Source: Escherichia coli (GTDB lineage: Bacteria; Pseudomonadota; Gammaproteobacteria; Enterobacterales; Enterobacteriaceae). Taken from it: a stretch of 64,000 bases of DNA. Positions 52,264 to 53,584 of the stretch are shown one piece after another (the first letter of the stretch is position 1; every line of letters begins with the position of its first letter). Location: NCBI RefSeq assembly GCF_003334255.1, contig NZ_QOWU01000009.1; one strand, 5' to 3'. A program made the translations under genes and the position numbers. Below the pieces are notes generated by a model. The model did not search any database and had not been told where the DNA came from. It saw only the letters and a program-made list of their open reading frames with translations.

Positions 52264-52752
52264 TTACCAGTCGAAAGTGGGTAAACCCGGCAGACATTCT
52301 GCGCCGGCGTCCAGATGAATTAGACTGACGCCATAACGCCGGGTGAGAGTGACGACCAGACGACGGAACGTTCTTGACAGGCCCAGGCGTTTAAGCCGCA
52401 GAACCGGGTATGACCACGCATCGGTACGTAACAGATATCCGCTACCTGTGAAATGAATCCATTCTGATTCACCAACGTCACTGGTCTGATGCGACAGCGA
52501 GTACAGCCAGGCGTTGTCCTTTGCCGTAATATGTGCGGTACTGCAGCGTATGCCGTTCAGGGCAGCAAATGGTGGCATGCAGTCTGTTGAGGTCCGGTCA
52601 GATTCATCAACAACACGAAGGAAGTGGCCGTTATCGCAGACCACGTTAATCAGTTCAGCGAGCTCAATACCATCGACGTCAACGACAATGCGCCCCATGT
52701 TCAGTGCCTGCACGTTAATGCTGTCGGCTTCCAGCGTCAGGGCCAGTTTCAT
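52264..52752 (-). CDS. YeeW-like protein, 162 aa, translationally coupled to the CbtA-like toxin
   Basis: Its start overlaps the toxin stop (ATGA overlap at 52749-52752); position downstream of cbtA corresponds to yeeW in CP4-44. Confidence 0.5.
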   Translation of the reverse strand: MKLALTLEADSINVQALNMGRIVVDVDGIELAELINVVCDNGHFLRVVDESDRTSTDCMPPFAALNGIRCSTAHITAKDNAWLYSLSHQTSDVGESEWIHFTGSGYLLRTDAWSYPVLRLKRLGLSRTFRRLVVTLTRRYGVSLIHLDAGAECLPGLPTFDW

Positions 52753-53126
52753 TGTTTTGCCTCCGGATGCTTACCCTGGGTAATGTCATTTACCGTTCTG
52801 TAGTTGTCGCGGGTCATCAGGCCGGTTGCCCGGCGTGCCCGGAGGATATCAATACTGTTTATTAACTGAGAGCGGGTACAGGCGCTGAATCCCGGCTGGT
52901 CGGTACGCACCAGCGCGTATTTTTCCACGAGAAAGTTCACCGCATCACACAGTGAAATGCCTGCCTCAATATGCTGCTCAATCACACGTTCATCAGCGAA
53001 CGGTGTGTCATTCAGCGTGAGGCCGTAGTGCTGGTCCAGCAACCGGGCCAGCAGTATCTGCCAGATTTCAACAGGAGACGGGCGTGAACTGGCCGACTGC
53101 CCGGGTAATACAGGTAATGTTTTCAT
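52749..53126 (-). CDS. CbtA/YeeV/YkfI-family type IV toxin (inhibitor of FtsZ/MreB polymerisation)
   Basis: 125 aa, MKTLPVLPGQSASSRPSPVEIWQILLARLLDQHYGLTLNDTPFADERVIEQHIEAG..., near-identical to the K-12 YeeV sequence I recall. Confidence 0.85.
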   Translation of the reverse strand: MKTLPVLPGQSASSRPSPVEIWQILLARLLDQHYGLTLNDTPFADERVIEQHIEAGISLCDAVNFLVEKYALVRTDQPGFSACTRSQLINSIDILRARRATGLMTRDNYRTVNDITQGKHPEAKQ

Positions 53127-53215
53127 ACTGAAGATTTTCCTGATATGCAGAGATAAAAAATGGGAAAGTGGCGTGGTGAAAACACCAGGCCGGAGCAGAA
53201 GGTTATTCTGATGAT

Positions 53216-53584
53216 TTACTTTTTCGTTTCGGGCGTCGGATAAACAGCCAGATAAACGTAACCACAGCTGCTGAGGGTATCGGCTTCGCAGGTCAGCCCT
53301 CTGGCATACAGCGTGACGGTATGCTGATGGCGGGGATTCAGTTCACCGCTGGTAAGCATGAGTTCCAGTTGTTTCATCAGCAGCGGAAAGGCCTGCTCCA
53401 GATGGTAGGCATCCGCGTCGCTGAACTGTCCTCTGATACCGGCGCGGTCGGCAAGGTAATGCAACCGGTTACCCTCCTGCACCAGACGTGCCCCGAAACA
53501 GGGCGTCACGGTACAGGGCAGTCCCCACCAGATGCGGTTGTTATGGTCGTCGGGATAATTTGTCTCATGGCGCGAGTCTGACAC
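53216..53584 (-). CDS. CbeA/YeeU/YfjZ-family antitoxin
   Basis: About 122 aa from a GTG at 53584 (..RIWWGLPCTVTPCFGARLVQEGNRLHYLADRAGIRG...LAVYPTPETKK); 89 bp upstream of the toxin. The ORF track's 158-aa ATG version (to 53692) would overlap the next gene. Confidence 0.8.
   Translation of the reverse strand: MSDSRHETNYPDDHNNRIWWGLPCTVTPCFGARLVQEGNRLHYLADRAGIRGQFSDADAYHLEQAFPLLMKQLELMLTSGELNPRHQHTVTLYARGLTCEADTLSSCGYVYLAVYPTPETKK

Follow-up and report, generated by a model that had tools for sequence, protein, structure and literature searches.

Gene content of the locus

The analyzed window, a 64,000-nt stretch of an Escherichia coli contig (NZ_QOWU01000009.1), carries on its minus strand an antitoxin gene of the cbeA/yeeU family located directly 5' of the toxin gene cbtA (yeeV), an arrangement also seen in K-12, and a gene for a full-length YeeW-like protein of the DUF5983 family directly 3' of cbtA. 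Gene coordinates were taken from the open reading frame listing and from direct reading of the sequence (Table 1). The locus is very probably an ordinary cbeA-cbtA-yeeW(DUF5983) module of the CP4-44 type in intact form, and nothing in its sequence content is at odds with this reading. A 505-nt query across the antitoxin start matched 4858 of 5426 complete E. coli genomes (about 90%), at a median of 3 places per genome.

Table 1. Coordinates of the cbeA-cbtA-DUF5983 module and of the adjacent features in the window
Feature	Coordinates	Strand	Description
Last island gene before the ula junction	51114..51962	-	282-aa DUF4942 protein
Terminator-like GC-rich hairpin with T-run	52019..51993	-	directly 3' of the DUF957 gene; consensus scan only
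65-aa gene, DUF957 in RefSeq	52244..52047	-	19 nt 3' of the DUF5983 stop codon
DUF5983 family gene (full-length YeeW-like; Aec77 / L0008-like)	52752..52264	-	162 aa
ATGA start/stop overlap	52749..52752	-	cbtA TGA and DUF5983 gene ATG (52752..52750)
GGAGG Shine-Dalgarno of the DUF5983 gene	52764..52760	-	within the last cbtA codons, 7 nt before the ATG
cbtA / yeeV toxin gene	53126..52749	-	125 aa; ATG start, TGA stop 52751..52749
cbeA-cbtA spacer	53127..53215	-	89 nt; AGGA 11 nt 5' of the cbtA ATG
cbeA / yeeU-family antitoxin gene	53584..53216	-	122 aa; GTG 53584..53582, stop TAA 53218..53216
Non-coding 5' extension of the cbeA open frame	53585..53692	-	36 codons; ATGs at 53692 and 53674
Shine-Dalgarno-like AAGGA	53596..53592	-	7 nt 5' of the cbeA GTG; read from the sequence
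Upstream 214-aa gene	54278..53634	-	phrog_5162 at 3e-36; 3' end supplies the spurious ATGs

Identification of the toxin and the antitoxin

The toxin matches the CbtA_toxin family (Pfam PF06755, E 7.4e-58) over its residues 1-112, aligned with positions 1-112 of the 112-position model. Its identity to K-12 CbtA is 96%: the two differ at five positions, and the window toxin has one extra C-terminal residue. Both R15 and F65, the residues tied to MreB and FtsZ, respectively, are present in the alignment with the K-12 protein, and an identical protein is annotated as cbtA in RefSeq. A preliminary description of this DNA had called the toxin almost identical to YeeV/CbtA, and both the identity level and the full-length Pfam match bear this out.

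The match of the antitoxin to the CbeA_antitoxin family (PF06154, E 2.3e-53) covers only residues 55-153 of the 158-aa open frame. Translated from the GTG at 53584, the protein shares 86% identity with K-12 CbeA, and the two align collinearly from residue 1 onward; the positions that differ (~14%) lie mostly in the N-terminal 17 residues. Among solved structures, the antitoxin is closest to YeeU of E. coli (2H28, E 2e-70) and of Shigella (2INW, E 3e-69), followed by the YfjZ structures 2JN7 and 2EA9 (about 5e-41). A sequence search of the PDB with CbtA gave no match; searches of the operon proteins against NCBIfam and PADLOC gave none for the toxin, the antitoxin or the DUF5983 protein, and the PHROGs search matched only families of unknown function. 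The domain and identity matches of the module are far beyond chance, and a CbtA/CbeA (YeeV/YeeU) type IV toxin-antitoxin pair is, as judged from sequence, the right identification.

Comparison with the K-12 modules and with reference strains

The CP4-44 module of K-12, composed of cbeA (yeeU, b2004), cbtA (yeeV, b2005) and yeeW (b2006), has the same gene order and strand as the window. Its cbeA gene is 369 nt long and encodes a 122-aa antitoxin with a GTG start behind TAAGGATTTTATC, which is identical in the window, as are the 32 nt around the start (CGATTTTCTGTAAGGATTTTATC-GTG-TCAGAC). The spacer between cbeA and cbtA measures 88 nt in K-12 and 89 nt in the window, and the K-12 cbtA and yeeW genes share the same 4-nt overlap as cbtA and the DUF5983 gene here. 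Besides the extra C-terminal residue of the toxin, the two loci differ in three respects. First, K-12 YeeW is a 64-aa truncation of the N-terminal part, whereas the window protein has 162 aa and both DUF5983 domains. Second, the 214-aa gene that the window has between the DUF987 gene and cbeA is absent from K-12 CP4-44. Third, the window island is located beside ulaD and not at the K-12 CP4-44 site.

The yfjZ-ypjF (CP4-57) and yafW-ykfI (CP4-6) modules of K-12 belong to the same two Pfam families as the window pair and, as in the window, are preceded by antirestriction, RadC-like and DUF987 genes. They are more distant paralogues, with antitoxins 60-64% and toxins (YpjF and YkfI) 57-62% identical to those of the window. 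YfjZ and YafW are shorter (105 aa), start with ATG and are devoid of the 17-residue N-terminal segment of the window antitoxin; YpjF and YkfI are likewise shorter (109-113 aa), and these modules have a spacer of 20 nt and no downstream DUF5983 gene. The K-12 ykfI gene (L004, CP4-6) also ends in ATGA, which is followed by an open reading frame of only 12 codons. This junction resembles that of locus L019, suggesting that a DUF5983 gene has been lost at the end of the CP4-6 prophage.

In RefSeq, strains TB06053 and NCTC9082 possess a 99.9% identical locus in which the CDS limits of all three genes equal those of the window, including the GTG, and the encoded proteins show a single amino-acid difference, located in the antitoxin. 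The three genes are annotated as encoding a YeeU family antitoxin, CbtA and a DUF5983 family protein. In TB06053, where the identity extends over 2.1 kb, the YeeU-family CDS (3717..4085) maps to 53584..53216 of the window, and the other two CDSs map to 53126..52749 and 52752..52264. Therefore, the GTG start is no peculiarity of the window copy, as K-12 and RefSeq annotate the same start. The features of the locus are already known in general, with both the GTG start and the overlapping downstream gene present in reference annotations.

Locus L005 (IMGVR_UViG_651053022_000002, 2501..4767) is organized differently: cbeA is duplicated in tandem, and of the two cbtA genes present one is partial (57 aa), while the other (136 aa) has an altered C-terminus and lacks the ATGA overlap. 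It illustrates how CbeA/CbtA modules duplicate and decay.

The cbtA-DUF5983 junction

The overlap of the toxin stop codon with the start of the 162-aa downstream gene, noticed in the preliminary description, was confirmed in the window, and an ATGA followed by a DUF5983 open reading frame was found in 11 of the 11 loci with an intact 124- or 125-aa toxin. The junction is kept even where the DUF5983 proteins are only 62-68% identical. The GGAGG element of the window is situated in the 3' end of cbtA, and K-12-type junctions likewise have GAGGC ahead of the ATGA. Because its ATG overlaps the toxin stop codon and it has a GGAGG of its own, the DUF5983 gene is probably translated by ribosomes that either terminate on, or initiate at, the end of cbtA. 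The spacing and overlap of the two genes thus support a putative translational coupling or re-initiation from cbtA to the DUF5983 gene.

In the 89-nt spacer between cbeA and cbtA, no significant RNA fold was detected (z -1.09). Rfam profiles identified no RNA family within the module or close to it, the sole hit within positions 50000-64000 being an IS102 RNA. Scanning for promoters revealed no sigma-70-like site on the module's coding strand and, overall, returned fewer sites than the shuffled controls. Since the untranslated spacer parts cbeA from cbtA, translational coupling is possible only between cbtA and the DUF5983 gene. The three-gene translational unit proposed earlier is too strong a description for a module whose spacer shows no significant fold, Rfam family or promoter-like site: the part concerning cbtA and the DUF5983 gene stands, whereas cbeA falls outside it.

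The DUF5983 family

The 162-aa protein matches both DUF5983_N (PF25638, 2.2e-31) and DUF5983 (PF19419, 4.1e-21). The family is narrow and mostly enterobacterial, with 212 representatives at E <= 0.001 among 1.84 billion, and many of its database entries are fragments. The C-terminal domain also occurs as a stand-alone protein (about 100-110 aa) and behind other N-termini. In an AlphaFold2 model built from a 28-sequence alignment, residues 61-162 are predicted with confidence (block-mean pLDDT 72-98, and above 90 in all 10-residue blocks but one) and the N-terminal domain is weak. The confident predicted fold of the C-terminal domain argues that DUF5983 is a real protein. Neither a relative of this predicted fold among solved structures nor a match in a PDB sequence search was found.

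The association of DUF5983 with CbtA is already in the literature. A survey across E. coli sequence types places DUF5983 always downstream of CbtA and treats it as a predicted 'partner' (PMC10790755). Further, a 2026 preprint (10.64898/2026.06.09.728211) discusses another small domain encoded beside DUF5983 in such loci, and argues that the AntiFam entry ANF00264, encoded beside DUF5983, is a real domain. It can be asked, then, whether the module is tripartite, with DUF5983 as a functional third partner (e.g. one that modulates the toxin or serves as a second antitoxin) whose dosage would be tied to that of the toxin via the ATGA. The published survey, the adjacency and overlap kept in all 11 loci even at 62-68% DUF5983 identity, the GGAGG within the toxin tail and the predicted folding of the C-terminal domain as a real protein are in line with such a module. 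Nevertheless, it appears unlikely, although to a lesser degree than the other alternatives considered below. In K-12, where YeeW is truncated to just 64 aa, CbeA alone neutralizes CbtA (PMC5371832); the ypjF and ykfI modules manage without a DUF5983 gene; the C-terminal domain is found alone or with other N-termini; and DUF5983 has no fold or family link to known toxin-antitoxin components. Moreover, the conserved adjacency says little about a functional link when the block is inherited as a unit. An ordinary CP4-44-type module, in which the DUF5983 gene accompanies the CbeA/CbtA pair, is the reading that we retain.

Gene neighborhood and transcription unit

The module forms part of a conserved same-strand gene block with the order DUF932, antirestriction, RadC-like JAB, DUF987, (DUF8835), CbeA, CbtA, DUF5983 and DUF957. 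This CP4-44/CP4-57-like order was established from the RefSeq annotation of the 99.9% identical locus, the RadC match and the comparisons with K-12. Terminator-like hairpins at 56787..56758 and 52019..51993 flank the block, which opens with the DUF932 gene and closes with the DUF957 gene; they suggest a transcript of ~4.7 kb. The latter, a strong hairpin, is a putative terminator, and the transcription unit probably ends with the 65-aa DUF957 gene in front of it; a Pfam-A scan of the product of this gene gave no hit. In the transcription-unit table of K-12, the yeeRST-cbeA-cbtA-yeeW genes constitute one operon (PMC7660256). By their spacing, cbeA, cbtA and the DUF5983 gene are most likely co-transcribed within a longer operon, and do not make up a closed three-gene unit.

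The 214-aa gene upstream of cbeA is named inconsistently in RefSeq, as 'DUF8835 domain-containing', 'hypothetical' or 'antitoxin of toxin-antitoxin stability system', and one of its homologues is listed as 'DUF8835 domain-containing pootine' (sic). We saw no evidence for the name 'antitoxin of toxin-antitoxin stability system', and a Pfam scan of the protein returned no hit despite the RefSeq name DUF8835. In K-12 CP4-44 a deletion has removed this gene except for its initial 15 nt (ATGAGCAGAATTATC), with the 3' flank still in place (L002, 3540..3612).

The same E. coli genomic island includes genes for Ag43 and a YeeP-like GTPase upstream of the block. At its other end, the DUF4942 protein has a weak PHROG similarity to DNA methyltransferase families (phrog_6263, 1e-15). 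The island abuts the ula operon: collinearity with the K-12 ulaA-D genes stops 56 nt into ulaE, with the junction at 50907/50908, and at 50852..51055 an UlaE N-terminus of 18-19 codons is fused to island sequence, annotated in RefSeq as a 67-aa 'hypothetical protein'. As the rest of ulaE and ulaF are absent from the window, this strain may have lost the use of L-ascorbate. Toward the end of the window, a full-length Rfam match to the IS102 RNA (246 bits; 63427..63630, minus strand) indicates an insertion sequence of the IS102/IS903 type.

Proposed mechanism and integrity of the module

By homology with K-12, the window toxin would block cell division and elongation by binding FtsZ, for which F65 is needed, and MreB, for which R15 is needed. 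The antitoxin would counteract it without contacting the toxin, by binding and bundling the FtsZ and MreB filaments, as expected for a type IV system. This mechanism is transferred to the window copy from K-12 homologues at 86-96% identity. In K-12, the contacts of CbtA with FtsZ (lost in F65S) and with MreB (lost in R15C) are separable (PMC5624674), the antitoxins CbeA, YafW and YfjZ block the toxins, and the operon is not autoregulated by either partner (PMC5371832). The type IV label, meaning that the antitoxin acts on the targets and not on the toxin, comes from K-12 literature as cited in these two papers (PMC5624674, PMC5371832).

Decay is common among the relatives of the module: frameshifts are frequent in related copies, the toxin is cut to 87 aa in L008 and L010, genes are altered or truncated in L005, L020, L021 and L022, K-12 yeeW is truncated and many DUF5983 database entries are fragments. 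However, it is very unlikely that the window copy is itself a decaying remnant without activity, as all three of its genes are full length, their starts, stops and Shine-Dalgarno sequences as well as R15 and F65 are intact, and other strains have annotated proteins that are identical or nearly so.

Translation start of cbeA

The start of the antitoxin was analyzed in 17 YeeU-type copies drawn from 18 related IMG/VR loci, K-12, TB06053 and the window. A GTG is located at the aligned position in all 17 copies, and the block (A/G)AGGATTTTATC precedes it in 16 of them, with the K-12 block identical; in the remaining copy, L005a, this block is one base off (GAGGACTTTATC). Ten of the copies have an in-frame stop 6-9 codons 5' of the GTG and no alternative start; in K-12 cbeA it is a TAG 9 codons upstream. 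From the GTG, the window protein shows the YeeU-subtype N-terminus (122 aa, beginning with (M)SD), and residue 2 of the 2H28 and 2INW chains is aligned with the codon directly after the GTG. No homologue or solved structure aligns with the 36 codons upstream of it.

The open frame itself spans 158 aa between the ATG at 53692 and its stop at 53216, and the corresponding peptide begins with MRPFTSMHIPSPK. Of the 5' extension of this frame, 49 nt are intergenic and the other 59 nt belong to the end of the upstream gene, whose coding frame is a different one. Since the GTG is present in 17 of 17 copies and upstream in-frame stops occur in 10 of them, the 158-aa ATG open reading frame is an artefact. 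The preliminary description had placed the antitoxin start at this GTG, with a core matching CbeA, and had noted that the long ATG frame would overlap the upstream gene. Pfam, K-12 collinearity, RefSeq and the 17 copies all agree with the former, and the overlap with the 214-aa gene amounts to 59 nt. In the alignment check that had been set beforehand, the homologues showed no N-terminal extension to the ATG at 53692 and kept the GTG; because they do not reach this ATG, the GTG start stands. Antitoxin translation would thus be initiated at the GTG behind the AAGGA Shine-Dalgarno, as annotated for K-12 cbeA.

An extended, 158-aa CbeA initiated at the ATG at 53692 (or 53674) and overlapping the upstream gene by 59 nt was rejected as extremely improbable, being effectively refuted by the comparison of loci. 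In its favor, the frame is uninterrupted back to 53692, ATG is the start codon used more often, and an in-frame ATG 35-36 codons upstream is retained in three copies with the same upstream gene (L005b, L006 and L022). Against it, these three copies are missing the ATG at -30 codons, and the Pfam domain as well as every homologue, including K-12 CbeA, 2H28 and 2INW, starts at or after the GTG. The extension is interrupted by an in-frame stop in 10 copies and by a 34-nt deletion, not a multiple of 3, in L005a, where the antitoxin is intact; neither ATG of the window has a usable Shine-Dalgarno, and RefSeq annotates the GTG.

On the comparison of copies and on annotation, the predicted native N-terminus of CbeA is the GTG at 53584; a direct experimental mapping of this N-terminus, by N-terminal proteomics or start-site profiling, was not found in the literature.

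Implications

As a textbook type IV module that is mostly multi-copy in E. coli genomes, the locus is of slight importance by itself. The comparison of loci at the cbeA start serves as a caution for ORF callers that favor the longest ATG open reading frame. DUF5983/YeeW is always attached to the long-type cbtA and is truncated in K-12, the strain in which the system was characterized. It is rather improbable that long-type CbtA/CbeA modules have a working third component in the full-length DUF5983 protein, with its production tied to that of the toxin by the conserved ATGA, and that this protein modulates the toxin or acts on the cytoskeleton. If this were true, the K-12 module, with its truncated YeeW, would have been characterized in a crippled form.
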